From IMG/VR virus record IMGVR_UViG_3300022752_000013: a DNA stretch of 64,000 bases. One strand, given 5' to 3'. Position numbers and translations under genes: made by a program. This document shows positions 1 to 59,186 of the stretch, one piece after another (position 1 is the first letter of the stretch; each line of letters starts with the position of its first letter). This stretch comes from a virus. Taxonomy: Duplodnaviria > Caudoviricetes. The notes beneath the pieces are model-generated. The model was not told the origin of the DNA. It saw only the letters and a list, made by a program, of their open reading frames with translations, and did no database searches.

Positions 1-2
1 GG

Positions 3-638
3 TGGCGATGGAAACAAAGCCACACCAATGTGGTACGTCGTATACTGGGTCATGCCAAACGCGGCACTCGCGTGGTATTCATAGCAGGCAATCATGATGA
101 ATTCCTGCGTCCCATGATACCATATGGTTTTAGTTTTGGACTAATAGAGATTCAAAATCAAACTGAACACATTGGTGCAGACGGCCGACATTATCTTGTG
201 GTGCATGGAGACCTGTTTGATGGTATCACAAGACTGGCACCGTGGATAGCATTTTTAGGAGACCGAGCATATGACTTTATTCTTGCGCTTAATAGCCGAT
301 TTAATTGGCTACTGCATCGTTTTGGTATTGGGTACTTTAGTCTTAGCCAGTACCTTAAAAAACGAGTGAAGAAGGCTGTAGACTTTATTTTCCACTTTGA
401 AAAAAATCTAGCCAATTACTGTCGAAAGCGAGGCTACGATGGAGTGATATGTGGACACATACATCATGCAGAGATCAAAGAGATAGATGGTGTTGTATAC
501 ATGAATGATGGTGACTGGGTTGAATCATGCACCGCTCTAGTGGAACATCATACCGGACGCTGGGAGATTGTAACATGGACACAAAAAAATGACAAAGAAG
601 ATACTGATAATAACAGACAACTTACCGGACCAGATTAA
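3..638 (+). CDS. plcP: PlcP-type phospholipase C / LpxH2-like metallophosphoesterase (5' truncated by window edge)
   Basis: Frame is open from base 3 (WRWKQSHTNVVRRIL). Motifs GNHDE, HGDLFD, ICGHIHH and YMNDGDWVESCTA match the COG2908/PlcP family. Overlaps a GT4 gene as in bacterial plcP-agt operons. Confidence 0.8.
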   Translation, partial: WRWKQSHTNVVRRILGHAKRGTRVVFIAGNHDEFLRPMIPYGFSFGLIEIQNQTEHIGADGRHYLVVHGDLFDGITRLAPWIAFLGDRAYDFILALNSRFNWLLHRFGIGYFSLSQYLKKRVKKAVDFIFHFEKNLANYCRKRGYDGVICGHIHHAEIKEIDGVVYMNDGDWVESCTALVEHHTGRWEIVTWTQKNDKEDTDNNRQLTGPD

Positions 639-1590
639 TGGCGTGGTTACCACTTACAAGAACATTGAGGCTTGTGCGGTATTGGATGGTTATACTGTGG
701 ATTATATTGATCCCGGGCGGTTCCGCTATGTTGATTGTCCTGGCTACAACGAAGTCAAACTTGCCATTCCGCGGGAGATGGGCAAGAAGATCGAAGAGAT
801 TGATCCGGATCATATCCACATCGCCACAGAAGGTCCTCTTGGTCTGTGGGCTAGAAAGTATCTTTCAATATGTGGTTATAGGTATAACACCGCTTATCAT
901 ACTAAGTTTCCTGAAGGGTTAAAGAAACTGTTTGGTATTCCTGAAGCAGTGACTTGGCCCTTGGTGCGTTGGTTTCACAAACATTCGGGCAAAGTTCTGA
1001 CCACAACCGAAACCATGGTACGTGAATTACAATCACACGGGTTTAAAGGTCAAATTGTTCCGTGGACTCGCGGTGTTGACCGTGCAATCTTTAATCCTAC
1101 TCATAGACAAAAAACCATCAGTCGATACATCTTGTGTGTGAGCCGTGTGAGCAAAGAAAAGAATCTTGAAAAGTTTCTTAAAATGGACTATCCGGGGTTC
1201 TTAAAGATCATGGTGGGTGACGGTCCCATGTTGGAAACTTATCGCCGGCAGTATCCTGAGGTTTGCTTTACAGGATTCAAAACAGGAGTGGATCTAGCCC
1301 AATACTATGCCAACGCCGAAGTATTTGTGTTTCCCAGTCAATGGGAAACATTTGGCATTGTGATGATTGAAGCCATGGCCTGTGGAACTCCTGTGGCTGC
1401 CTATCCTTGTCAAGGCCCCGAAGATGTCATTGACGAAGGTGTCACTGGCTGTATGAACACAGATTTAAAGCAGGCCGTCACTGATTGTTTGTTTTTAAAT
1501 CGACAAGGTGTGTGGCAAGGTAGTCAACGTTGGTCATGGGAACGTGCCTGGGCGATATTTAAAGACAACTTGGTGCCAGCAAAGTCATAG
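589..1590 (+). CDS. agt: GT4 glycosyltransferase, Agt-like (monoglycosyl/glucuronosyl-diacylglycerol synthase-like)
   Basis: ITD..P.Q.NGVV N-terminus, HIATEGPLG, YHTKFPE, VSRVSKEKN and ETFGIVMIEAMACGTPV (GT-B EX7E). Position directly after plcP supports the Agt call. Confidence 0.7.
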   Translation: MTKKILIITDNLPDQINGVVTTYKNIEACAVLDGYTVDYIDPGRFRYVDCPGYNEVKLAIPREMGKKIEEIDPDHIHIATEGPLGLWARKYLSICGYRYNTAYHTKFPEGLKKLFGIPEAVTWPLVRWFHKHSGKVLTTTETMVRELQSHGFKGQIVPWTRGVDRAIFNPTHRQKTISRYILCVSRVSKEKNLEKFLKMDYPGFLKIMVGDGPMLETYRRQYPEVCFTGFKTGVDLAQYYANAEVFVFPSQWETFGIVMIEAMACGTPVAAYPCQGPEDVIDEGVTGCMNTDLKQAVTDCLFLNRQGVWQGSQRWSWERAWAIFKDNLVPAKS

Positions 1591-1640
1591 TTTATTGTGT
1601 AGGTGCTTTTATTTCTAGTACCGGAGTTTAAATATATGCT

Positions 1641-1781
1641 ATGAGCAGTATTTTTGAAGAACTAAACGACCTAGTATCAGAAAACCCAGTTGGTAAAGTA
1701 CTGGGCATTACTTTGTTGATTCTTGTTTTCTCTGGAGCAGTTGCTCTTGGGTTTGCTTATTGGATAACACACAGGCATTGA
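1641..1781 (+). CDS. small single-pass membrane protein (46 aa; not in ORF track)
   Basis: MSSIFEELNDLVSENPVGKVLGITLLILVFSGAVALGFAYWITHRH; TAAATA at 1629-1634. Confidence 0.6.
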   Translation: MSSIFEELNDLVSENPVGKVLGITLLILVFSGAVALGFAYWITHRH

Positions 1782-1782
1782 G

Positions 1783-2559
1783 TTATCTTCCCGAATATCT
1801 TTTAGGTTCGGCTTCCAGTTGACGTTGACGTTCTGTTTTGGGTACAATGCCGGTGCCCAATTGGGGGTATTTCTCAATTCTGTCTTGTATCACCAACGCC
1901 ATCATTAATCCAACTGACAATGCAATAACCACAGCCGCCACTCCCCATATAGCATTGGCCCAAATAGCATCCATACGCCTTTTTCTACGAACCGCCCGGA
2001 TATGGTCTTGTCTCATTTGTTTAGCGATAAGAATCTTTTGTTGCTTGCCCATGATCAGCATCATGTCTTCCACTTCAGAGTGTAAAGCACCCAATTCAGG
2101 AGGTGATTGATACACCATTATCTCACGAAGTTCTGTGCCCATCTGTTCCAGTTGTTTTTTCATCAGCACACGTTGTAGGGCACGTTTGCCTAGACTAGCA
2201 TCACCTTCATAGATCTCGTGCTGACTGTGCTTTTCTTCTTCTTCAAAGATAGCCATGCACTTGTAGTAGTTGTCGTAGTATGCACCAAGATGTTCGCCAA
2301 GTTCGGTATAGATGCCCGCAGTCTCGCCGTCGCGCTTGTTTAGTTCAATTACACGATTTTTTTCTTTTACAAATTGATTACGTGCTTCTACGCTGACTGG
2401 TTTGTCAGGTGGATGTGCTTTGGCAAATTGCTCGTCGAGATCTTTGAGCACAGCCTTGACATCGCCAGCGGCACCTTTGATGTCTTTGTACAGTTGACAG
2501 CCTTTTTTCACAGCAGCCACAGCGCCATTGGCCAGGGCAAAGAGGGTTATGGGATCCAT
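1783..2559 (-). CDS. hypothetical coiled-coil protein with C-terminal TM helix
   Basis: 258 aa ORF; hydrophobic segment IWGVAAVVIALSVGLMMALVI. Confidence 0.75.
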   Translation of the reverse strand: MDPITLFALANGAVAAVKKGCQLYKDIKGAAGDVKAVLKDLDEQFAKAHPPDKPVSVEARNQFVKEKNRVIELNKRDGETAGIYTELGEHLGAYYDNYYKCMAIFEEEEKHSQHEIYEGDASLGKRALQRVLMKKQLEQMGTELREIMVYQSPPELGALHSEVEDMMLIMGKQQKILIAKQMRQDHIRAVRRKRRMDAIWANAIWGVAAVVIALSVGLMMALVIQDRIEKYPQLGTGIVPKTERQRQLEAEPKRYSGR

Positions 2560-2816
2560 TACTTGACCTCTTTCTTCAAACGATACTCAACACAGATTAC
2601 GATTCTATTGTTGACATCACCGATCCAGGCAGTTCGTACACATTCAGCAACACCGTGGTTGAGTCGTACTTCTCGTTCTCGAGCAGGTAGTTCTCGTGCC
2701 ACACTGGGTCGATCACCGCCATACATAGGCGAACTTGACACCATTGCAGACGCACATAGTATTAGCAATAATACCAAGATTACAATTCGATAGATAGCCC
2801 TTATTTTTGTCATCAT
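2559..2816 (-). CDS. hypothetical exported protein
   Basis: Signal-like N-terminus; coupled to the downstream gene; TAAATA on minus strand at 2847-2852. Confidence 0.6.
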   Translation of the reverse strand: MMTKIRAIYRIVILVLLLILCASAMVSSSPMYGGDRPSVARELPAREREVRLNHGVAECVRTAWIGDVNNRIVICVEYRLKKEVK

Positions 2817-2900
2817 ACTTCCAGTTCTTACGCTGAGAACTCAAAGTATTTACAGCAATGGTTGCGTTAGATTAAAGGGTGTTTAACTATTTTAGTCAAT

Positions 2901-2918
2901 AAAAAACCCCTTGCGGGG
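2901..2918 (-). terminator. rho-independent terminator
   Basis: Minus strand CCCC-GCAA-GGGG-TTTTTT just after the 2924 ORF. Confidence 0.7.
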
Positions 2919-2923
2919 CAATT

Positions 2924-3175
2924 TTAGTTGGTAGGAGTTTTCTTGGCTCGAGGTTTTTTGAGTACAACTGGCTTTTCAGCAGGCACCGCCTTAGGCTTGG
3001 CAAGTGCTCGGGACTTTTTAACAGGAGCAGTGGCTATCATTGGCGCCGGTTCCGGTGCAATTTCACTTGCTCTAGGAAATGGCCAATTGGTCACAGGCGC
3101 CTCAACTTTGTACGGTGCTTCGGTTGCGATCTCTTTTGATTTGCCAAAAAAGAATTCTTTGAACTTGTTAAACAT
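2924..3175 (-). CDS. small Lys/Pro/Ala-rich basic protein
   Basis: RBS AGGAG; tail KKPRAKKT; TAAATA on minus strand at 3193-3198. Confidence 0.7.
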   Translation of the reverse strand: MFNKFKEFFFGKSKEIATEAPYKVEAPVTNWPFPRASEIAPEPAPMIATAPVKKSRALAKPKAVPAEKPVVLKKPRAKKTPTN

Positions 3176-3195
3176 GCTGTTCTCCTATAGAATAT

Positions 3196-4290
3196 TTAGC
3201 GTGGTAACCATGAACTAATGAAGTTCTGTATAGGTTTGTGACGATGCTCCATGTTCCTAATCAGTTGATAATTGTGTACTAAAATTTCTTGTGCCTGTGC
3301 GTACAGCAGTTGCGGATCAGTCTGGGCTAGAAATTCTACTGCTTGCCATGCTTTGGCCCAGCGTTTGCAATCATCAACTATTTCATCATAACTTTCGTCA
3401 ATTAAGTCTTCAAAAGTACGATAGCCCTGTGCTTGTAATTGTGCCAGTGCCCTATACCCACCAAATAGCACAAATACACGTTGACCATGAATTGCTTTTC
3501 CTGTTTTTTCAGTTAAAAATGCAGTTTGTGTAGGGTTAGTTTCAGCCACAATGCTGTACCAACTGTTTTCGTACACTGCTCGAGGAATAAAAACATTTAC
3601 ATTCATTGTTTCGTCAAAAAAATAATTGTTGCCTTTGTAGTAATAGTTGGCGCTGTTATCTTGGAGATCTGCTCGAGCAGTTGTAGTCATTTGCGCATGA
3701 TCAAGTTGATTTAATGCTGGCGATCTATAAAAATATTCTGCTCCATGACTGCCGCTTACTGACAGTAAAGTTTGATCGATAAAATTACTCTGTTGAATCC
3801 ACGCAGACAATTCACGTCTAACTGGGGTGGCTTGTCCTAGTAGTGCTTCAAACAAAAAATCACGTTGTACTGGTTGTTTTAATTCAAGATTTTGGTTGGC
3901 TGCACATACCCTATCAAACGTAGTCAGTGTAGGTGTATATACTTGTTCGTGCCTGGGCCAATATCGAGGCACACCTCCAGTTAACACAATCACGTGTGAA
4001 CATTTTGTTTGTTGTTGAAGATCACTGATAAATTTGTCGGGAGATAATTGACTGTCAATGATTTCTGGAGTGTATCCTATGACCATGTCTGCCCAACTGC
4101 AATCTTTAAAATGGTCGTTTTGAAAAATTTCTACTATGGCAATTTTTTTCCTAGAGTCATTGATAAATTTTTCAACTGGTTCCCAGACCACTTCACAGTC
4201 TGGAATCCAAGGCCATCCGTGCGACTCAGCATAATGTGCCGGAAACCCAAAATGGTAATTGTCGCACAAAATTAAGTAAGGTTTGGACAT
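3196..4290 (-). CDS. GT10-like (fucosyltransferase-like C-terminal domain) protein, paralogue 1
   Basis: SIVAET..FLTEKTGKAI..FVLFGG..GYRTF..IDESYD motif, shared with the ORFs at 10247 and 11251. Confidence 0.55.
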   Translation of the reverse strand: MSKPYLILCDNYHFGFPAHYAESHGWPWIPDCEVVWEPVEKFINDSRKKIAIVEIFQNDHFKDCSWADMVIGYTPEIIDSQLSPDKFISDLQQQTKCSHVIVLTGGVPRYWPRHEQVYTPTLTTFDRVCAANQNLELKQPVQRDFLFEALLGQATPVRRELSAWIQQSNFIDQTLLSVSGSHGAEYFYRSPALNQLDHAQMTTTARADLQDNSANYYYKGNNYFFDETMNVNVFIPRAVYENSWYSIVAETNPTQTAFLTEKTGKAIHGQRVFVLFGGYRALAQLQAQGYRTFEDLIDESYDEIVDDCKRWAKAWQAVEFLAQTDPQLLYAQAQEILVHNYQLIRNMEHRHKPIQNFISSWLPR

Positions 4291-4360
4291 GTGAGATATT
4301 TAACGATTAGTGATTGCTCACTAGTAAAAACCATTGATTTGCAGTTGCAGGATCATATAT

Positions 4361-4396
4361 AATAGCACATAGGACGCTGGATAGGCCGGGTCCTAA
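4361..4396 (+). promoter_or_regulatory. 5'-UTR stem-loop ahead of the phasin-like gene
   Basis: TAGGAC-G-CTGG-ATAGG-CCGG-GTCCTA pairs; lies between TATAAT and the RBS AGGAG. Confidence 0.45.
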
Positions 4397-4423
4397 AGTA
4401 AACTCGCTTTATAGGAGAACCAT

Positions 4424-4699
4424 ATGTTTACAGCAGACGCAATCATCGATACAGTTCAAACTGGTAAAAAAACTTTCGTTAACACATTCGTAACAAACGA
4501 AGCAACCAAAGAAGCAATGATTAAATTCATTGACGCACAAGCCGATTACACCAAAAAAGCCTCCAAGGTTGGTTTGGACACAGCAACCACGCTCACAAGC
4601 GAAGCAATGAAACAAGTGCAAGAAGTGGTTAAATTTGACTATGTCAAAGCAGGACAAGAATTCTTCAAAGCATTCCAGCCAGCAACAAGTAAAAAGTAA
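4424..4699 (+). CDS. phasin-like protein
   Basis: 91 aa amphipathic helical Ala/Thr/Lys-rich protein (IDTVQTGKKTFV...FIDAQADYTK) resembling phasin family proteins; strong RBS. Confidence 0.55.
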   Translation: MFTADAIIDTVQTGKKTFVNTFVTNEATKEAMIKFIDAQADYTKKASKVGLDTATTLTSEAMKQVQEVVKFDYVKAGQEFFKAFQPATSKK

Positions 4700-4713
4700 T
4701 ACCTTAGTATTAC
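4696..4713. promoter_or_regulatory. GTA(A/G)TAC-N4-GTA(T/C)TAC palindrome, copy 1
   Basis: GTAATAC-CTTA-GTATTAC, a perfect inverted repeat. Confidence 0.7.
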
Positions 4714-4720
4714 CATTTGC

Positions 4721-4745
4721 AAGCCCTGTATAACGCAGGGCTTTC
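4721..4745 (+). terminator. rho-independent terminator
   Basis: GCCCTG-TATAACG-CAGGGC-TTTCT. Confidence 0.6.
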
Positions 4746-4747
4746 TC

Positions 4748-4776
4748 TTGACCAATAATTGCCATTCTGCTATACT
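4748..4776 (+). promoter_or_regulatory. sigma70-type early promoter
   Basis: TTGACC-17-TATACT. Confidence 0.8.
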
Positions 4777-4782
4777 TGCCAC

Positions 4783-5070
4783 ATGAGATACTTAATACCG
4801 TTGATTGTTGTGGTAGCAGGCTGTGCCAATGTGCGTCCACCTGTGGATGTTACTCTCATACCCAATGACTGTGCCAACCAGCCGGCAATCATCAATTGGT
4901 TGGAAGAACAAAGCCGACTTTCCCCTTCAACTTTTTCTGACAAGGATCAATATGCAAGACACCGTGCCTCGATTCGCCAACGTGTATGGAATATGCGTTA
5001 CACTTGCAATCCTGCTGACTACAGGTTGCTCAACTGTGCAAAGAACGCCAATGGCGTTTGTGGATCTTGA
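4783..5070 (+). CDS. lipoprotein A (two-Cys family)
   Basis: MRYLIPLIVVVAGC lipobox; start lies just downstream of the promoter. Confidence 0.7.
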   Translation: MRYLIPLIVVVAGCANVRPPVDVTLIPNDCANQPAIINWLEEQSRLSPSTFSDKDQYARHRASIRQRVWNMRYTCNPADYRLLNCAKNANGVCGS

Positions 5071-5293
5071 TCACTTCAAAGTCAATTGCAGAAAAAAAGG
5101 TGAGCAGATTGCATTCTTGCAAAGTATGAGACCCACAAATGATGAAAAATTACTTACAGGGTTCAGTGCTCTGTTACAACCCTGGACCTACATTACAGAT
5201 CCTTATGGGCATGACAGCAAACAAGCAGTATCAACAGGAAGATCAGAATGGGTAATAAATCAATTGTTAATGGAACTTCGCGACAACTGCTGA
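4952..5293 (+). CDS. lipoprotein B, paralogue of A, overlapping A by 119 nt
   Basis: RBS AAGGA before ATG 4952; lipobox LLTTGC. Confidence 0.7.
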   Translation: MQDTVPRFANVYGICVTLAILLTTGCSTVQRTPMAFVDLDHFKVNCRKKGEQIAFLQSMRPTNDEKLLTGFSALLQPWTYITDPYGHDSKQAVSTGRSEWVINQLLMELRDNC

Positions 5294-5841
5294 TTGCATG
5301 TTTGATTGCACCTGCTGTGGCTCTAGCCCAACAATGTGTGCTACAAACTCGTACAGTCACGCAAGGTCAAATTCAAGTGGAAGAACGTAGCCAAGTGTCG
5401 GCACAGATAGTGCCTGTTCCGGGCGGAGATCAACGATGCATGATCTCCATGCGCGGACGTGTGGGTGCCACATGGTATACTGGATTTGGTGAATTTGTAT
5501 TTTCTAGAACAGGCAGTCCTGAACAGGCATGTGTGAGTGCTCGATCACGAGCCGAAGCCAGCATTGTGTCACAAGCAGGATCACGACTGGTGTCTACAGA
5601 TAGTACTTTAGTTTGCAAAGAAGATCCCACACTAGATGCATTGCGTCGAACGGATATCGGTACTGTGGCCAAACTGGCACAATATCGTCCCCATCCGGAT
5701 TACCCAAATGACTTTAGACACAATGGTACTCGGTGCCGTTGGTTTTTGGATCCTGCGTGGACCGGGCGTGAATTGCGCACAGGACAAGGAGTAATTTGCC
5801 AATTACAAGATGACAACTATGTTGTGGTTGACAAATTTTAA
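5248..5841 (+). CDS. exported hypothetical protein with Cys pairs
   Basis: Signal-like LLIACLIAPAVALA-Q; exact start uncertain. Confidence 0.7.
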   Translation: MGNKSIVNGTSRQLLIACLIAPAVALAQQCVLQTRTVTQGQIQVEERSQVSAQIVPVPGGDQRCMISMRGRVGATWYTGFGEFVFSRTGSPEQACVSARSRAEASIVSQAGSRLVSTDSTLVCKEDPTLDALRRTDIGTVAKLAQYRPHPDYPNDFRHNGTRCRWFLDPAWTGRELRTGQGVICQLQDDNYVVVDKF

Positions 5842-5856
5842 GATATCGGTTATACT
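5828..5856 (+). promoter_or_regulatory. sigma70-type early promoter
   Basis: TTGACA-17-TATACT. Confidence 0.8.
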
Positions 5857-5886
5857 ACGTACACATTAATCACCAAAGAGGTAGAT

Positions 5887-6642
5887 ATGAAACTTTCAGT
5901 AATAGCACTAGCACTTGTTGCCAGTATCGGAGCCGCCCAGGCTCAAACACAACCGCATCCTTATGCGATGAATCAAGCACCTGTGTCAGCACCGCCTGCC
6001 GCACCCGCCTGGTTCACAAGACTGCCCGAGGATACTGCGGACATGATCTTTTCAGCCGCAGTGGGTTCCAGCGTAGATGAGCAGATGGCCTATGACAAGG
6101 CTCGTATGCAAGCCGAACGCAAACTGGTTGAACTCATGAGTTCTAGAGTTCGTTCAAACGTAAAAAGTTATCGCAATGATCGTGGTGACAACATGCAAGA
6201 AAGCACAGAGATCACTATCAACAAAACAGCCGATGGCGAGTTGATTGGGGCACAACGTGTGGACAGTCAAGCCACGTTTGACGGTCGGGTGTATCGTGTG
6301 TATGTGTTGCTACGCTACCCGCTGGCACAGAACAACACCTTGCGTAAAGAACGTGAGGGTGCTCAAAGCAAACGTGAAGCAGACTTGAGAGCCGCACGGG
6401 CACAACAAGATCTCGAGCGTGAAACTCAACGTCAGCGTACAGACGCGGAAGCCGCAGATCGCAGACTCAAAGAAGAAATCGGCCCACGCCCTGATGCTCC
6501 AGCACCAGCATCTGCACAGACAGTGAACACCACTGAAGGACCGGTAAAGTTACTGGATGTGGACAATGTTGAGTACAAGCAAAAACGCACCGAAGCACTG
6601 GCCAAACCTGGTGCTGTTATCGGTCAAACAGTCGTCCGATAA
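5887..6642 (+). CDS. exported LPP20-like protein with coiled coil
   Basis: Signal peptide ending AAQA; PAWF...FSAAVG...MAYDKARMQAERKL resembles the LPP20 fold; RBS GAGG. Confidence 0.6.
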   Translation: MKLSVIALALVASIGAAQAQTQPHPYAMNQAPVSAPPAAPAWFTRLPEDTADMIFSAAVGSSVDEQMAYDKARMQAERKLVELMSSRVRSNVKSYRNDRGDNMQESTEITINKTADGELIGAQRVDSQATFDGRVYRVYVLLRYPLAQNNTLRKEREGAQSKREADLRAARAQQDLERETQRQRTDAEAADRRLKEEIGPRPDAPAPASAQTVNTTEGPVKLLDVDNVEYKQKRTEALAKPGAVIGQTVVR

Positions 6643-6690: not shown

Positions 6691-7275
6691 ATGATTATGG
6701 CCACACAAGAAACTATTCAAACGGAACAAAATCACTCACAGTCCCTGGCCGATAATGGCATGTATGTTTTCATGGGTGATGTGGATGACGAAAACATCAA
6801 GCCAGTGGTGGAATGGGTGTTGTACGAAAACTATGTGACCAAGAAAAAGAAAAAGGAACTACTACTGATGATCTGCTCCGGCGGAGGAGACATGGGTGCG
6901 GCCTTTGCCCTAATTGACGTCATGATGAGTTCGCAGATTCCAATTAAAACTGTGGGCCTAGGAACCATTGCATCAGCAGGACTCTTGATCTTTATATCCG
7001 GCACTCACGGACGCCGAATACTCACACCCAACACCAGTATCCTGAGCCATCAGTTCTCCTGGTACAACGAAGGCAAGGTACATGAGTTGTTTGCCACCAT
7101 GAAAGAGTTTGAACTCACACAGGCTCGAATGTTGGCACACTATGAATTGTGTACAGGTCTGGGGCGAGAAGAGATACGCACGAACCTGTTGCCGGCACAG
7201 GATGTATGGCTTTCAGCATCGGAAGCACTGGCCTTGGGCGTGTGCGATGATATCAGCGTTTTAAATAGATCTTAA
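6691..7275 (+). CDS. clpP: divergent ClpP-like protease
   Basis: ICSGGGD, GTIASAG (catalytic Ser), ILSHQ (His), QDVWLSASEA. Confidence 0.8.
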   Translation: MIMATQETIQTEQNHSQSLADNGMYVFMGDVDDENIKPVVEWVLYENYVTKKKKKELLLMICSGGGDMGAAFALIDVMMSSQIPIKTVGLGTIASAGLLIFISGTHGRRILTPNTSILSHQFSWYNEGKVHELFATMKEFELTQARMLAHYELCTGLGREEIRTNLLPAQDVWLSASEALALGVCDDISVLNRS

Positions 7276-11254: not shown

Positions 11255-12240
11255 TAATTACGACATTTGATCAAGGCTGGGGACGTGAATACCCGCTCAA
11301 ACAGTACGAGCAAGGTATTGTGAGTGATCTTGTGAAACCGTTTGTTAAGAGTGATCAACGTGTGGTCATAATCAACAGCGTGTGGTACACTGGGGAAATG
11401 CACGAACAAGTGATGTTGTGGTTGCGTGAGAATGAGTGGGATCAGATTGTGTTGATTGCCATGTTGGATGCTGCCATACCCTATCCTGACCGCTATGAGG
11501 AATTTGGTCGTCCGGTCACCGGTATAGGTTACTATCCGGGCGCAGGTCAAGTGGATTTTTGTGCATTATTTGTTGATCACTTTTTACAGGCCCCTGATAA
11601 CACTGTATTGTTGGAGGTCAACACAATTGACACTGCATACATGTGTTTGAATCGAAAACCTCACTGGCACAGACAAAAACTATACAGCAAACTACAGGCC
11701 ATGAATCTGGTCAATCAAGGCATTGTGAGCATGGGCGGCGACGGGCAGGCTGTAGTAGCATTGGCACAAGATCGAGATCACGACACCCTGGCACCCAATG
11801 CCACTAGCGATCATTATGGTATACCCAACGATATTGTGAGTTTGGGACACCCGGGTAATTGGCAACGACACCTGCTCAATGTGGTCACTGAAACCTTTTA
11901 CAACATAAATAGTTCAGGCTTTGTAAGTGAAAAAATCTACAAACCCATTGTGGGTTGCAGACCGTTTTTGGTATATGACCCAGATGGTGGCACACGTTGG
12001 TTGCGTGATCGAGGGTTTGAACCTTACACACAGGACTTTGAGGACATTTCGAATTTGGATCTGGCAGAACCACACAACCTACCCGGATTTCTAAAGGTTC
12101 TGTGTGAGCAAACACCTGCGTACTGGCAAAAGAAATTTGTTGACTTACAGGAAAAAATCCTATACAATCAGGCTCACTTTGCTGATTACGTCAAACAGCA
12201 ACAATCTATAGTCGAAAAAGGAATACCATGCCCCATTTAG
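11251..12240 (+). CDS. GT10-like protein, paralogue 3
   Basis: [26 protein letters not shown]; [12 protein letters not shown]. Confidence 0.55.
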
Positions 12241-12824
12241 TGCCAATTGTGCTTGAACAAACTGCCAAAGGCGAGCGCAGTTACGATATCTACAGTCGTC
12301 TATTAAAAGACCGTGTGATCATGCTGGACACAGAAGTGAGCGAACACACAGCCAGTCTGCTGGTAGCACAAATGCTGTTTTTGGAAAGTGATAACCCTGA
12401 TAAAGATATTTCCTTGTATATTAATTCGCCAGGTGGAAGTGTAACAGCGGGCATGGCCATTTATGATACCATGCAGTTTATTCGCTGTGATGTACAAACT
12501 ATCGTAATGGGACAGGCCTGCTCCATGGGGTCGTTGTTGGCCACAGCAGGAGCCGCAGGCAAACGTATGATCCTGCCCAATGCCCGACACATGATTCACC
12601 AGCCATCAGGTGGTGCTTCAGGACAAGCCACAGACATCCAAATTCAAGCACGTGAAATTCAAAAGATGAAAGAGTATCTTACCAACATCTATGTCAAACA
12701 CAACACAGCAGGCAAAGACTACGATGTACTGAGTGCAGACATGGAACGTGATTTCTTCATGAGTGCCCAAGAAGCAGTGGACTATGGTTTAGCAGATCGA
12801 ATCATCAATCAACGTGACCAATAA
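12228..12824 (+). CDS. clpP: ATP-dependent Clp protease proteolytic subunit (canonical)
   Basis: [40 protein letters not shown]. Confidence 0.95.
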
Positions 12825-18724: not shown

Positions 18725-19156
18725 TTACTTGTAAATGTAGTTGATGGTGTCCGAATTTTCGCGATAGACTCCAGCACCATTCTTTAAATGGAAACGTCGG
18801 GCCATCTCGGTCTTGGGACTTAGTGTAACATAGGTATCAATACCAGGGAATTCTTGCTTGATCGACTTCTGTGTTTCCACAATCAACTCACGCCCAGACC
18901 CTGCGGCGTAACTCCAAATTGTATAAAATACTGCAACAGTGGCACTTCCAACCAACTCAGCCAAGTCATCCACAGCCGCCGGAATGGCCTGCAAGAATTT
19001 GACACAGGTCACTGCTTGAGTTTGGTCCCCATCCTTCAACATGTAGATTCGACTGTTGGAGTTTATCCGTTTGGTCATGGGGATTTCAGGACGCACAGGG
19101 TCATCCTTGATCAGGGTTTCTAAGTCTTCTGTAATGGTGGTGATGGTGTGTAACAT
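18725..19156 (-). CDS. minimal malonyl-CoA decarboxylase-like (GNAT-fold) protein
   Basis: AVFYTI, G.G..LI, EFPGIDTYVTLSP, ARRFHLKNGA and NYIY match the order of MCD catalytic-domain motifs. Confidence 0.65.
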   Translation of the reverse strand: MLHTITTITEDLETLIKDDPVRPEIPMTKRINSNSRIYMLKDGDQTQAVTCVKFLQAIPAAVDDLAELVGSATVAVFYTIWSYAAGSGRELIVETQKSIKQEFPGIDTYVTLSPKTEMARRFHLKNGAGVYRENSDTINYIYK

Positions 19157-19224
19157 AATCTACGCCGTTAATGTTTATGTAAAGGTATTTATCACAACCT
19201 TTGTTACATTAAAATTACAGAGTG

Positions 19225-23010: not shown

Positions 23011-24091
23011 AGGCACCCAAAAATTATTTTTTATCCAGTTAAATCAGGCTGCCTCTTGTTGTAGAAGTAATCTTGAATCGTTGCCGGCTGACATGTCAGA
23101 CTTGCTTGAGCATTGGCAACTGGAACATGATCAATTGACACAAGGCATTGCCGTTCAAAATTGTTCTGTTTGTTGGAAACAACAGGCCCAAGGTCATACA
23201 TCTTGGAGACAACTACACGGTCACCAGAATAACAACACCGTTGAACTGTGGTTGAACAATTCCTGCAATCAAATGTGTAGTTATTGTAGTCCAAAATTCT
23301 CTAGCACTTGGCAACAGAATATCATTGACCACGGACCTTTTGAAAATATCAGTAGCACAGCCAAATCCAATCTTGACCTGCCACCAATAGCAATAGATCA
23401 GCAACAGTGGATAGAAAAAATAGGTGAATATTTACAATCTCAACCTCCAGAATCAGTTGATCTAAAGTTGTTGGGCGGTGAGCCCTTGATGCAGATTCGA
23501 AATTTACAAAAATTAATTGATCTTTCTGGTAATAGTATAAATCAACTGATGATAAACACCAATCTCAATCCTCCCAACAATCGATTCCTGCATTGGTTAT
23601 TGGACACAGTGCCTGCTTACAAACTCAAATTTGAGATAAGTCTAGACGCCAGTCCCAAATATAATCATGTGCCAAGAGCAGGATTTGATCCAGAACGATT
23701 CCATACCAATTTAGAATTGCTGATTGAAAAAAATATAAATTTTGGTTTTTTGTCGGTTATGAGTGTGCTGAGTATTTTTGACTTGCCCGACTTTACGAAA
23801 TGGTCTCAACCATATCAAGTGGCATTTAACAAAATCAACAATCCGGATTGCCTGGACCCAATTTGGTTACCAATGGAAATCTTAGACCAAATAAACAACC
23901 AGTTTGAGCAAGAACCGCCAATGATTTTCCAAGAATTATACAACAAGCCGCAATCTTTGGTTGACCTAAAATTGTTTGAGCAGTATAATTACTTGTGTCA
24001 GTATTTTTCTAGAACTGGCATAAACATCAAACAAATCGATAATCTCTTGTTCCAACAATATTGGACTTGGCTAGAAGAAAGACAAAAATGA
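22931..24091 (+). CDS. radical SAM protein
   Basis: CNQMCSYC, LLGGEPL, INTN; true start uncertain. Confidence 0.75.
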   Translation: MTAMKQQYRHSNLKWINLINQTQCNLKGTQKLFFIQLNQAASCCRSNLESLPADMSDLLEHWQLEHDQLTQGIAVQNCSVCWKQQAQGHTSWRQLHGHQNNNTVELWLNNSCNQMCSYCSPKFSSTWQQNIIDHGPFENISSTAKSNLDLPPIAIDQQQWIEKIGEYLQSQPPESVDLKLLGGEPLMQIRNLQKLIDLSGNSINQLMINTNLNPPNNRFLHWLLDTVPAYKLKFEISLDASPKYNHVPRAGFDPERFHTNLELLIEKNINFGFLSVMSVLSIFDLPDFTKWSQPYQVAFNKINNPDCLDPIWLPMEILDQINNQFEQEPPMIFQELYNKPQSLVDLKLFEQYNYLCQYFSRTGINIKQIDNLLFQQYWTWLEERQK

Positions 24092-24942
24092 AAATCTCAC
24101 TGGTCAGTGACGTACATTTAGAATTTGGAGACTTGGACTTTGAAAATGATCAAGGTGCTGAAGTCTTGATTCTGTCTGGCGACATTTGCGTGGCTAAAGA
24201 CATTGCCCAACGTGATCCCTATGGCATCATGGGCCCAGGATATCGTAGCAATCGCTTTCATGATTTCTTTCAACGCTGTCATGACCGGTTTCCACATGTG
24301 ATCTACATTGTGGGCAATCATGAATACTACCATGGCGACTTTGCCACCGCTTTTGCACATCTCAAGGATGTGCTGGGCTACTTGCCCAACTTGCATATCC
24401 TGGAAAAAGAATCTATTACTATTGGTGACACCACATTCTTGTGTGGTACGCTGTGGACTGACATGAACCGTGAAGACCCGGATACCTTGTATCGCATTCG
24501 CAGTTACATGAATGATTTTAGAATCATCAAAGACAGTCGCCATCCTGTACACTTCAAGGACTCGGAAGGTCACAGGCACACACGTGATGGCAAATTCAGC
24601 CCCGAGGCAACGGTGGAAGAGCACCGGGCCATGTTGAAGTTTGTGAAGGAGTCAATTGAGGCCAATCCTGCAGGTAAGTATGTGGTAGTTGGTCATCATG
24701 CACCCAGCCGGGCGTCGACTCATGCACAGTACGCAGATCAAACCATGGTGAATGGTGCTTACAGTTCAGACCTGGATCAGTTTATTCTTGATCGTCCACA
24801 AATCAAACTATGGACACATGGACACACTCATCATGAGTTTGACTACATGATCGGCTCGTGCCGTGTGATGTGCAACCCACGTGGTTATGATGGCTATGAA
24901 CAACAGGCGGAACAATGGAAACTAAAAACAGTAGATATCTAA
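24088..24942 (+). CDS. calcineurin-like metallophosphoesterase
   Basis: SDVHLE, LSGD, VGNHE, GHHAP, HGHTH. Confidence 0.9.
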   Translation: MKISLVSDVHLEFGDLDFENDQGAEVLILSGDICVAKDIAQRDPYGIMGPGYRSNRFHDFFQRCHDRFPHVIYIVGNHEYYHGDFATAFAHLKDVLGYLPNLHILEKESITIGDTTFLCGTLWTDMNREDPDTLYRIRSYMNDFRIIKDSRHPVHFKDSEGHRHTRDGKFSPEATVEEHRAMLKFVKESIEANPAGKYVVVGHHAPSRASTHAQYADQTMVNGAYSSDLDQFILDRPQIKLWTHGHTHHEFDYMIGSCRVMCNPRGYDGYEQQAEQWKLKTVDI

Positions 24943-36052: not shown

Positions 36053-36528
36053 AAGTAGAAGACTACAAAGCACTAGACTGGAAGTGGGAAGCAAATCCTA
36101 TCGAGCAGTTAACAATTAATGGCATTGACCCTCTCACAACCTACAGTAGTGGTACAAGTCACCCTTCATACGGTGCTATACCCAATGTGTCCATTGGTGG
36201 TGGTAGTAATATCAGCCCAACTGTTTGGACTACAACTACTAACAATACTGGCGGATATACTTTTGCCAATCAAAACATTCAGCCCAACAACACAGTTCAC
36301 ATCAAAGGTGAAAACGCTGATCTCTTGATCAATGAAAAGAGTCTCAAGACCTGGATGGAGAAGGTTGAAGAACGATTGAACATACTCGCTCCCAATCCTG
36401 AAATGGAAAAGGAGTGGGACCAATTGCGTAAGTTAGGTGAGAGATATCGTAAGTTAGAGAAAAAATGCAAGGAAAAATCAGATATGTGGAACAAACTAAA
36501 GGCCATGCCTAAACCGGAGATCAAATGA
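35995..36528 (+). CDS. hypothetical protein
   Basis: Thr-rich linker plus C-terminal coiled coil. Confidence 0.65.
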   Translation: MANDQISLDEYLAQLNSRVEVEDYKALDWKWEANPIEQLTINGIDPLTTYSSGTSHPSYGAIPNVSIGGGSNISPTVWTTTTNNTGGYTFANQNIQPNNTVHIKGENADLLINEKSLKTWMEKVEERLNILAPNPEMEKEWDQLRKLGERYRKLEKKCKEKSDMWNKLKAMPKPEIK

Positions 36529-37301
36529 CACCCCGACAAAGAATCAAACACATCACCAAGTGGATCAAAGCCTACGCCCGGAGTGCCAAAATTGACACTT
36601 TGGTGGTGGGAATTTCCGGCGGCATTGACTCCAGTGTGGTATCCACTCTGTGTGCCGAAACAGGACTCAAGACCATTGTGGTTCAAATGCCAATCCGTCA
36701 AAATCGGAAACTAGATAATCGTAGCAGTATGCAGGCCAACTGGTTGCTGGAACGTTACAAAAACGTCACCCATGTGAGCATGGATCTAACCCCAGTGTTC
36801 ACATCATTTGAAAAGAAACTTGAACCCATTTGCCGAGACAGCACGGACATAACCCTAGCATTTGCCAACAGCCGTGCTAGATTGCGCATGATGACTCTAT
36901 ATCAAATTGCGCAAAGTTATGGTGGAATTGTGGTAGGCACAGGCAACCGGGTAGAGGATTTTGGTGTGGGCTTCTTTACCAAGTACGGTGACGGTGGCGT
37001 GGACATCAGCCCCATTGGCGACTGCATGAAAACAGACGTTTGGGCTATGGGCAGTGAATTTGGTTTGCCACAAGAAATCATTGACGCAGAACCCACTGAC
37101 GGACTCTGGGATGATGACCGCACAGACGAAGGACAACTGGGCATGACCTATCCTGAACTGGAACGAACTATGTGGCTGGACGAGTCCGGAGACCAGTCTG
37201 TAACCAGTACAGAAAAAGCAAATCTTAAAAAGTATCGAGCAATTCGCGCCAGAAATCTGCACAAGATGGAACCAATTCCTGTGTGCAAAATATCTGAGTA
37301 A
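36525..37301 (+). CDS. nadE: NH3-dependent NAD+ synthetase
   Basis: GISGGIDSS, NSRARLRM, GTGN, FFTKYGDGGVD, PTDGLW..TDE..LGMTY; no glutaminase domain. Confidence 0.92.
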   Translation: MTPRQRIKHITKWIKAYARSAKIDTLVVGISGGIDSSVVSTLCAETGLKTIVVQMPIRQNRKLDNRSSMQANWLLERYKNVTHVSMDLTPVFTSFEKKLEPICRDSTDITLAFANSRARLRMMTLYQIAQSYGGIVVGTGNRVEDFGVGFFTKYGDGGVDISPIGDCMKTDVWAMGSEFGLPQEIIDAEPTDGLWDDDRTDEGQLGMTYPELERTMWLDESGDQSVTSTEKANLKKYRAIRARNLHKMEPIPVCKISE

Positions 37302-57896: not shown

Positions 57897-58455
57897 TGCC
57901 GACGGCGTTATCTTAGATTGGGAATATGCCTTCTCAGTCTGGATGGAAGAGCATGGCTTTGTGAGAACTGAAGGCAGTCAGTTCATGTATGATATAGGAC
58001 AACGCTACGGAATTGACCATGAACAAGGTCGCAAGTTGATTAAGATTTTTAACGAATCGGCTGCCATTGGTTTTTTGCCTCCATTACGTGATGCCATGTA
58101 TTATGTCAAACGCTTGCACGAAGAACACGGTTACGTATTTCACTGTATTACCAGTCTAAGTCTTGATGCCAACGCCGGCAAACTGAGAGAAATGAATCTA
58201 CGTAAGTTATTTGGAAAAACTGCATTTGAACGCATTGTGTGTTTGGACACCGGTGCAGACAAGAATGATGCATTGAGTGAGTATCAGAATTCTGGTTGTC
58301 ACTGGATTGAAGACAAACCGGAAAATGCTGAAGTTGGACTAGATTTAGGTTTACGTAGCATCCTGATGGAGCATGGGCATAATATGAATCATGTCAACGA
58401 ACAAATTCCGGTAGTCAAAAACTGGCGAGAAATTTACGAAATCGTCACCTCCTAA
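57841..58455 (+). CDS. HAD-family 5'(3')-deoxyribonucleotidase-like phosphatase
   Basis: LVDADGV (DxDG), CITS, K, WIEDK. Confidence 0.85.
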   Translation: MSNLKKPQKYNPKQLILVDADGVILDWEYAFSVWMEEHGFVRTEGSQFMYDIGQRYGIDHEQGRKLIKIFNESAAIGFLPPLRDAMYYVKRLHEEHGYVFHCITSLSLDANAGKLREMNLRKLFGKTAFERIVCLDTGADKNDALSEYQNSGCHWIEDKPENAEVGLDLGLRSILMEHGHNMNHVNEQIPVVKNWREIYEIVTS

Positions 58456-59186
58456 TCTTCGTACAATCTCAGCACTGAGCCAATTATAGGGTGACGCTGG
58501 ATATCTTTTCCGGTCAGTCTGCACACAGCCATACCTGCCACGGGCCGTGCCTCTAATTTGATACACAGATCCAACAGTCCATTGTTGTGCTCTTTGCGAT
58601 CTGCTTGTTCCACATCTCCAGTTACCACAATCTTGCTGCCGGTGCCGATGCGGCTCAGGAGCATTTTCATTTGTGCGGGAGTAGCGTTTTGCATTTCATC
58701 TGCAATGATCCAGGCATGCTTGAACGTGCGTCCACGCATGTAGGCCAAGGGTGAAATTTCAATGTTGCCTTCTTCGATCATGGCAGTGATCTCAGCGGGC
58801 CGGTAATACTCACGCAGTACATCAAGCAAGGGTCTTGTCCAGGGTTCCATTTTGGCCACTAGATTGCCGGGTAAGAAGCCATGTTGTTCATCCTCCACGC
58901 CGATGGCGGGACGAGTTAGAACGATACGCTTGGCTTCGCCGCTTCTGAAGGCTTTGACCGCTGCCAGCATGGCTAGATAGGTTTTACCAGTTCCTGCTGG
59001 CCCTGCTGTTACAATGATGTGTTGGTCTGCGTCGAGTAGATTTAGTATGAGATGCTCTTGGTTTCGTGTTTTGGGTATTAGTTCTATGGGTCGTTGTCGT
59101 GCCTTTGGTTGTGTGTTAAACGGAATTGTGTTTTCAATGTTTGTTTGCATACGTTGTTGCGCCTTAGCGCCTCTGTTTCTACTCAA
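58452..59186 (-). CDS. phoH: PhoH-like ATPase
   Basis: GPAGTGKT, LTRP, GFLPG, LAYMRGRT, IADEMQN, VTGDVEQ. Confidence 0.95.
   Translation of the reverse strand: MSRNRGAKAQQRMQTNIENTIPFNTQPKARQRPIELIPKTRNQEHLILNLLDADQHIIVTAGPAGTGKTYLAMLAAVKAFRSGEAKRIVLTRPAIGVEDEQHGFLPGNLVAKMEPWTRPLLDVLREYYRPAEITAMIEEGNIEISPLAYMRGRTFKHAWIIADEMQNATPAQMKMLLSRIGTGSKIVVTGDVEQADRKEHNNGLLDLCIKLEARPVAGMAVCRLTGKDIQRHPIIGSVLRLYED

Follow-up and report, generated by a model that had tools for sequence, protein, structure and literature searches.

The first 1590 nucleotides of a 64,000-nt stretch of Caudoviricetes DNA (IMG/VR record IMGVR_UViG_3300022752_000013; hereafter the window, meaning the whole stretch) hold two overlapping genes, which are likely best explained as a phage-borne PlcP-Agt pair that mines host membrane phosphorus under Pho-type control. 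PlcP-Agt lipid renovation is a response of phosphorus-starved proteobacteria, encoded by an operon of the Pseudomonas aeruginosa, Sinorhizobium meliloti, Phaeobacter MED193, SAR11 and Agrobacterium types (PMC4796936, PMC8528852). Both phage enzymes are ordinary members of known families, and we regard their family assignment as highly probable from sequence. What is new is the carrier, the form of the promoter, an exchangeable glycosyltransferase partner and a glutamate variant in the glycosyltransferase.

The plcP-type phospholipase C gene (3..638, + strand) is present in the window as its last 211 codons and stop; its open reading frame (ORF) is open at the 5' end of the window, whose edge cuts off the first 53 codons. 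The sequence preceding the window was taken from a metagenome contig (L002) that encodes a glycosyltransferase identical to that of the window, and on which the complete plcP (L002:9256-10050) specifies a protein of 264 aa (P0001). The identical glycosyltransferase protein is found on ten metagenome contigs (ENA, JGI), the longest of 0.2-1 Mb, and plcP is complete there. The agt-type gene, a glycosyltransferase family 4 (GT4) gene complete at 589..1590 (+), encodes a predicted diacylglycerol glycosyltransferase of 333 aa and overlaps the end of plcP by 50 nt (589-638). ORF calls and Pfam matches (Metallophos and Metallophos_2 for the first gene; Glycos_transf_1, E 1e-23, Glyco_trans_1_4 and Glyco_transf_4 for the second, which has the GT-B GT4 architecture within the usual ~330-350 aa) agree with an earlier sequence-only reading of this DNA, which saw a COG2908-type metallophosphoesterase overlapping a GT4 gene. 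That reading also had the phosphoesterase follow the motif order of its family, and all metal and catalytic motifs (D12-x-H14, G41-D42, G82-N83-H84-D85, H121 and G204-H205-x-H207) are indeed present in P0001 and invariant across 30 aligned homologues.

The phosphoesterase groups with characterised PlcP and apart from the lipid A enzyme LpxH, as had been proposed. P0001 is 58% identical over 233 aa (E 5e-93) to the P. aeruginosa PA3219 orthologue and 49% identical (E 1e-84) to the S. meliloti SMc00171 orthologue; with Escherichia coli LpxH its identity is 26%, over 120 aa only. Among themselves, characterised PlcPs share 46-47% identity (PMC8528852). The P. aeruginosa anchor was found on a fragment with the gene order azoR3, csaA-like gene, regulator, phosphoesterase, glycosyltransferase and cyaB; this order matches the PA3223 to PA3217 region and the pair was therefore taken as PA3219 (PlcP) and PA3218 (Agt1). 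The SMc00171 anchor is the gene beside sinR and sinI on the S. meliloti Ak57 chromosome. Both anchor sequences came from records mislabelled as plasmids. Published work has defined PlcP by a BLASTP E-value <1e-40 against the MED193 protein (PMC4796936); the full-length similarity to characterised PlcP reported here is to the PA3219 and SMc00171 orthologues. All 8000 scored proteins of a search through 5.8 billion metagenome protein sequences matched the plcP product, and the closest cellular homologues, 50-58% identical, belong to Alpha-, Beta- and Gammaproteobacteria.

On the NCBIfam equivalog models for LpxH, P0001 scored 47.5 bits (NF003743, cut-off 134) and 35.2 bits (TIGR01854, cut-off 190), thus failing both, and characterised PlcPs score equally low on the LpxH model (55 and 38 bits). 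In Pseudomonas graminis and Acidovorax kalamii, true LpxH (333 and 241 bits) is encoded by a gene separate from the PlcP-like paralogue (57 and 46 bits); a separate true LpxH (282 bits) is likewise present in Chromobacterium haemolyticum, whose plcP-like gene fell below the search threshold. A tree of 118 sequences separates 4 true LpxH from 114 PlcP-like proteins with 100% support, the 19 giant-phage copies forming one clade (99%) within the PlcP-like group. PlcP-like proteins, that of the window included, read GNHD and CGHIH where the four true LpxH read GNRD and HGHTH. The closest solved structures are those of LpxH, by sequence (E 2e-5) and by fold (E 7e-12, TM 0.54-0.6): LpxH structures match the AlphaFold model (pLDDT 87) over its whole length and all others are far worse. 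In the model, helices occupy the stretch from residue 122 to 195, between strands of the core, at the place that accommodates acyl chains in LpxH, and such an insert would fit a lipid substrate. No PHROGs family was matched by the phosphoesterase, and defining PlcP residues were not found in the pelagimyophage paper (PMC7029224) or the Burkholderia cenocepacia PlcP paper. The sequence evidence thus identifies the phosphoesterase as PlcP and not LpxH.

The GT4 protein is likewise, by its sequence relationships, the specific orthologue of the plcP-adjacent Agt rather than a generic GT4. It is 38% identical to P. aeruginosa Agt1 over its full length (330 aa, E 1e-75) and 37-46% identical to plcP-adjacent bacterial GT4s. 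In each of four whole bacterial genomes, its best match is the plcP-adjacent gene (223-286 bits), the next GT4 reaching at most 46 bits. For comparison, Agt1 is 41% identical to MED193 Agt (PMC8528852), Agt members are 35-58% identical mutually (PMC8528852, bioRxiv 10.1101/2021.03.25.437072), and the SAR11 enzyme GTcp, like its close homologues, shares <25% identity with other GT4s (bioRxiv 10.1101/2021.03.25.437072). Phylogenetic analysis places the phage GT4s in one clade (100%) inside the plcP-linked clade that includes Agt1, so that on best matches, identity and clade position alike the gene is of the plcP-linked Agt type, as predicted. GTcp uses a His104-Asp256 catalytic dyad and carries the motifs GRVAXEKN and FPSXTDTFG; its D256E mutant lost >90% of activity (bioRxiv 10.1101/2021.03.25.437072). 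The phage protein keeps the dyad histidine (AYHTKFPE aligned to AIHTRFPE of Agt1) and reads SRVSKEKN and FPSQWETFG at the other two motifs. With regard to the claim that the GT4, too, follows its family's motif order, the histidine is retained and the aspartate of the Agt motif is replaced by glutamate. Six bacterial plcP-linked GT4s, from Comamonadaceae and Sphaerotilaceae, also have glutamate at this position and arose separately from the phage clade. We accordingly assign the phage GT4 to the Agt clade without assigning it a donor specificity or rate.

The two genes do not lie together by chance. A plcP relative is encoded on at least 588 IMG/VR contigs, and the best 80 (79-88% identical) were used for the locus comparison. 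A glycosyltransferase gene follows plcP in 78 of these 80 viral loci, a GT4 in 32 and an unrelated glycosyltransferase family 2 (GT2) gene of 239 codons in 46; one locus ends too soon to judge. The GT4 pair in the order and orientation of the window recurs on about 30 of the 80 contigs, and 55 of 80 bacterial loci have it too (a full-length GT4 homologue, nearly always directly after plcP). The glycosyltransferase gene mostly comes directly after plcP (~700-900 nt away in three viral loci), and the other neighbours of plcP vary among the viral loci. The GT4 and GT2 partner types are intermixed across the PlcP tree; hence the phages have swapped the partner more than once and preserved the pairing, which argues that both products serve one pathway. 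Both genes are under purifying selection in phages: with synonymous sites saturated, dN among phage copies lies at 0.07-0.14 in plcP and at 0.12-0.28 in the GT4 gene, and dN/dS, to be read with that saturation of dS, is 0.03-0.05 and 0.09-0.17, respectively. As to the GT2 partner (e.g., L007:6907-7626), its best NCBIfam match is TIGR04283 (61 bits, below the cut-off), and no homologue of it was found beside plcP among the 80 proteobacterial loci.

The sequence before plcP bears on regulation. Upstream of plcP on L002, TGTAACAAAATAGTAAC stands at -38, followed by 11 nt, TAAATA, 4 nt and the ATG. Among related phages, 35 of 73 distinct plcP upstream regions have a TGTAAY-N5-TGTAAY repeat, matching at 10 or more of 12 positions, in the same place; after most of these boxes TAAATA comes ~11 nt on and ATG 4-6 nt further, and some have canonical TGTCAY halves (e.g., L007 and L129). 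Exact TGT[A/C]AY-N5-TGT[A/C]AY sites number 37 in 697 kb of phage loci, 22 of them at -70 to -25 of plcP. Most of the remaining exact boxes share the layout of box, 11 nt and TAAATA, and three precede phage pstS (395-398 bits, above the NCBIfam PstS cut-offs), a gene that lies beside the cassette in 4 of the 80 viral loci. The box persists in phage lineages where the rest of the neighbourhood is different. In Pho promoters of E. coli, the last repeat lies 10-11 nt before the -10 element; here it ends 10-11 nt before TAAATA, and the distance of the repeats from TAAATA is either too short or too long for a sigma-70 -35 element. In 17 of 80 bacterial loci, plcP has TGTCAY boxes with the spacing seen in the phages, and a Pho box before plcP has been published for P. 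aeruginosa (PMC8528852). The sequence-only reading had named the region upstream of plcP as the place to look for a Pho box, and a Pho-box-type site shared with pstS in relatives is there, mostly with TGTAAY halves. The repeat is read, from its sequence and position, as a putative Pho box of the host; possibly another regulator of the OmpR/PhoB family acts at it.

This signal emerged after the half-site was read from the phage's own aligned upstream regions. A first Pho-box score against CTGTCATNNNNCTGTCAT was no better than background, the canonical TGTCAY-N5-TGTCAY with up to one mismatch has no match in the window, and the TGTAAY form with up to one mismatch is not enriched there (3 found against 2.1 expected). 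The only exact copy in the window, TGTAAT-N5-TGTAAC at 19203..19219 (-) with GATAAATA 9 nt downstream, is built like the sites upstream of plcP and pstS in related phages. Lying 46 nt behind it is a gene for a 143-aa protein (18725..19156, -) with a weak match to Pfam MCD (malonyl-CoA decarboxylase C-terminal), a candidate for a second regulon member in this phage.

TAAATA itself is seen, from its distribution, as a general -10-like element of the phage, the direct repeats being the specific part. Five of the 28 TAAATA sites of the window have an ATG 4-6 nt further on and no Shine-Dalgarno sequence (1629, 16020, 43720 and 59339 on the + strand; 4302 on the - strand), which suggests a class of leaderless transcripts, the plcP message probably among them. 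We considered a T4-type late promoter and rejected it: TATAAATA is found a single time in the window, at a place that precedes no gene, and the pstS genes of relatives, which stand behind the same box and TAAATA, have an ordinary leader that includes a Shine-Dalgarno site. The site at 1629-1634 belongs to a unit (1629..1781, +) in which, after a gap of 6 nt, a 46-aa ORF (1641-1781) with one hydrophobic helix directly follows the GT4 gene; it was called as a gene on every contig reaching there, and whether it is a member of the cassette is uncertain. Contigs from four lake metatranscriptome runs cover plcP and the GT4 gene, some without differences, and hardly any cover 1618-4400; they were set aside as evidence of transcription, given that the runs were chosen for holding this stretch and that carry-over of DNA is possible.

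From the family membership, linkage and shared box described above we infer the activities, the binding of PhoB and the benefit as follows. During infection of a phosphorus-starved host, a PhoB-type switch would turn the cassette on, 11-bp-phased direct repeats of the PhoB type standing in for the -35 region. PlcP would cut the phospho-head group off host phosphatidylethanolamine, phosphatidylglycerol or phosphatidylcholine and leave diacylglycerol, to which the GT4 would add glucose and/or glucuronate from a UDP-sugar. The membrane would thereby stay intact as phosphorus-free glycolipid while the phospho-head groups become a phosphorus source, from which host phosphatases would free phosphate for nucleotide synthesis. 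The gain would be extra phosphorus with which to replicate a genome of ~330 kb in phosphorus-poor lake water. An NDP-sugar dehydrogenase of the UDP-glucose type, encoded ~5 kb upstream in the same phage and scoring below curated cut-offs, is a possible source of UDP-glucuronate, which known Agts use as their second donor. We place good confidence in the chemistry predicted for the pair from its sequence; the role in scavenging phosphorus we favour only by a modest measure.

Several observations weigh against this interpretation. The plcP box of the window's own phage matches at 11 of 12 positions and overlaps the end of the upstream gene. The half-site of the box is mostly TGTAAY and not the canonical TGTCAY, and another regulator of the OmpR/PhoB family may act at it. 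TAAATA is a general feature of the promoters of this phage, and no pstS was found in this window. In the GT4, glutamate replaces the catalytic aspartate of Agt in all 31 phage copies as well as in the window (FPSxWETFG), and the phage GT4 clade sits on a long stem.

The explanation that best survives beside phosphorus mining keeps the same enzymes and gives them another benefit, such as a block to superinfection, a change of envelope charge or stability of the cell until lysis, Pho control being merely inherited. PlcP renovation and lipid make-up are discussed as affecting phage attachment and predation in the portions available of PMC9938194, PMC9804370 and PMC9457565, and the repeated exchange of GT4 and GT2 could mean selection on the displayed head group. 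We nevertheless find it unlikely: the box is common to phage pstS, a gene known for phosphate uptake only; plcP is a neighbour of pstS in the four relatives noted above and in Pelagibacter phage Mosig; the box persisted where other neighbours changed; and inner-membrane lipids are no obvious receptor surface. Less probable still is a non-lipid substrate, with the phosphoesterase trimming a nucleotide or nucleotide-sugar and the glycosyltransferase decorating a polysaccharide, a virion protein or the DNA of the phage. Phages commonly carry glycosyltransferases as morons (matches to phrog_2170 and phrog_4356), the window has a second GT4 and other tailoring genes, and the GT4 catalytic acid departs from the Agt consensus; against these stand the specific orthology of both proteins to a lipid-acting pair, the modelled helical insert that in LpxH holds acyl chains, and the fit of the Pho-type box and pstS linkage with a phosphate role. 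Finally, that the phosphoesterase is LpxH and the pair modifies lipopolysaccharide (LPS) is suggested by source annotations ('UDP-2,3-diacylglucosamine pyrophosphatase LpxH'), by the nearest solved structures and by virus surveys that place 'lpxH' under LPS biosynthesis (PMC9611531, PMC10653327), but is already contradicted by the sequence, with its failed equivalog cut-offs at scores like those of characterised PlcPs, far higher identity to PlcP, separate true LpxH in genomes that have both genes, fully supported tree split and GNHD/CGHIH motifs, and is thus highly improbable.

The carrier of the pair is a freshwater phage of roughly 330 kb. The window has, among its genes, one for a T4-type clamp loader (phrog_168, E 4e-75) and one that matches a virion structural protein; several radical-SAM genes, two ClpP genes and numerous ORFs without any family match lie there too. 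IMG/VR viral contigs as long as 331 and 359 kb carry close relatives of the phosphoesterase, and the 359-kb one has gene content of the same kind as the window. The possibility raised earlier that the flanks could be host chromosome is thus answered in favour of phage. Megablast of window positions 1-6000 against 50,697 phage records gave no match, and the phage has no cultured close relative among them. The sequence-only reading further mentioned phoH, which is present at 58452..59186 (-; PF02562, 225 bits). To our knowledge phoH is nearly universal in large phages, and its presence in the window therefore adds little.

Other genes of the window and its relatives round out the picture of the carrier. 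ClpP-type proteases are encoded at 6691-7275 (+) and 12228-12824 (+) (Pfam CLP_protease, 91 and 269 bits), and on L002 the sequence preceding the window holds ClpS and HSP20 genes. Another calcineurin-like phosphoesterase, of 293 aa and unrelated to the first, lies at 24061-24942 (+; Pfam Metallophos, E 3e-6), and an NAD synthase at 36525-37301 (+; Pfam NAD_synthase, E 8e-48). In the 359-kb relative, a 71-aa protein matching Pfam eIF-1a (IF1-like S1 fold) is encoded just upstream of plcP (L007:5557-5772), and downstream are a superoxide dismutase gene and iron-sulphur assembly genes (NifU, two Fe-S_biosyn).

Promoters of similar layout precede additional elements near the cassette. A putative small RNA of ~70 nt (L002:8418-8512, about 750-840 nt before the first base of the window) is bounded by a box-plus-TAAATA promoter (TGTAATATTATCGTAAT, 11 nt, TAAATA) on one side and by an intrinsic terminator on the other and folds into three hairpins (z = -2.7); no Rfam match was found for the region. 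It is beside the cassette in 8 of 82 phage loci, which include L102, L108, L111, L112, L120, L154 and L178, and has a conserved core (GATAGAGTG...GGAACTCGTAACCAG) while the stem and terminator sequences differ. Directly before plcP, a 215-aa gene (L002:8545-9230) matching Pfam BPL_N (glutamine-amidotransferase-like) has a weaker box of its own (AGTCATAAAAATGTCAA, 12 nt, TATAAA, with ATG 5 nt past the -10-like element); its position and orientation vary among related phages. A third member of the putative phage Pho regulon is a coiled-coil-like gene of 214-315 aa (N-terminus MRFEDLAARL...) lacking any Pfam match, which stands directly after the glycosyltransferase gene behind its own exact box-plus-TAAATA promoter (L142:4309-4950, L172:6706-7650, L126, L140 and L152); no copy was found in this window.

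A literature search found no paper describing a phage-borne PlcP or PlcP-Agt cassette, and the publications found to treat PlcP and phages together deal only with bacterial lipid renovation and its effect on phage attachment. The gene is very common but systematically labelled LpxH, and virome surveys file it under LPS synthesis: in two papers 'lpxH' appears with the LPS genes of viruses, one paper treating surface waters of an oligotrophic sea (PMC9611531, PMC10653327). The 'lpxH' of those two papers is probably this PlcP gene. We give an even chance to the joint proposition that membrane-lipid mining is widespread and PhoB-switched in an abundant lineage of freshwater giant phages and in some marine ones (Mosig), the phage itself turning host phospholipid into glycolipid when phosphate is scarce and so paying for its large genome, partner swaps yielding different glycolipids, and most 'lpxH' of aquatic viromes being PlcP.

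Phosphorus limits bacteria and their phages in many lakes and ocean regions, and the known phage answers to this limitation are uptake genes such as pstS and phoA. If our interpretation is true, the cassette would represent a different kind of phage auxiliary gene, one that recycles membrane-locked host phosphorus with the cell intact until lysis. A 330-kb genome holds ~0.66 million phosphorus atoms and a small bacterium, by a rough textbook estimate, a few million phospholipid molecules; on these figures the membrane could pay for several extra genomes. This raises the question of whether viruses drive part of the phospholipid-to-glycolipid shifts in phosphorus-poor waters.

Among known systems, the bacterial PlcP-Agt operon (PA3219-PA3218, SMc00171, MED193, HTCC7211, Agrobacterium tumefaciens) is the closest, with the same families, order, orientation and overlap. 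The identities of the phage proteins to its products (58% and 49% for PlcP, 38% for Agt1) are as high as those among characterised members, and both systems have an upstream Pho-box-type repeat with the same 11-bp phasing. The phage side differs in its carrier, a lytic-type phage of ~330 kb, and in copies that form their own clades; in mostly TGTAAY half-sites with the -10 TAAATA 4-6 nt before the ATG; in the glutamate for aspartate of the GT4; and in the replacement of the GT4 by a 239-aa GT2 in sister phages. LpxH shares the superfamily and the fold, a calcineurin-like core plus helical insert, but belongs to a separate paralogous clade with GNRD/HGHTH motifs and another genomic partner.

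Phage genes of the Pho regulon offer a further comparison. Zeng and Chisholm reportedly described in 2012 cyanophage pstS and phoA with Pho boxes and under host Pho control. The phage plcP resembles these as a host-derived, putative Pho-regulon gene behind a PhoB-type box, and relatives of the window phage carry pstS in this manner; however, cyanophage pstS and phoA tap external phosphate, whereas phage PlcP would tap host membrane phospholipid. A cultured marine phage gives another comparison: Pelagibacter phage Mosig EXVC030M, with a genome of 141 kb, encodes a protein (Mosig_00120, 'putative UDP-2,3-diacylglucosamine hydrolase') that is 45% identical to the window phosphoesterase (tblastn) and falls in the PlcP-like clade. 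Its PlcP-type gene is divergent from a phage pstS and, unlike that of the window phage, is not followed by a glycosyltransferase gene.

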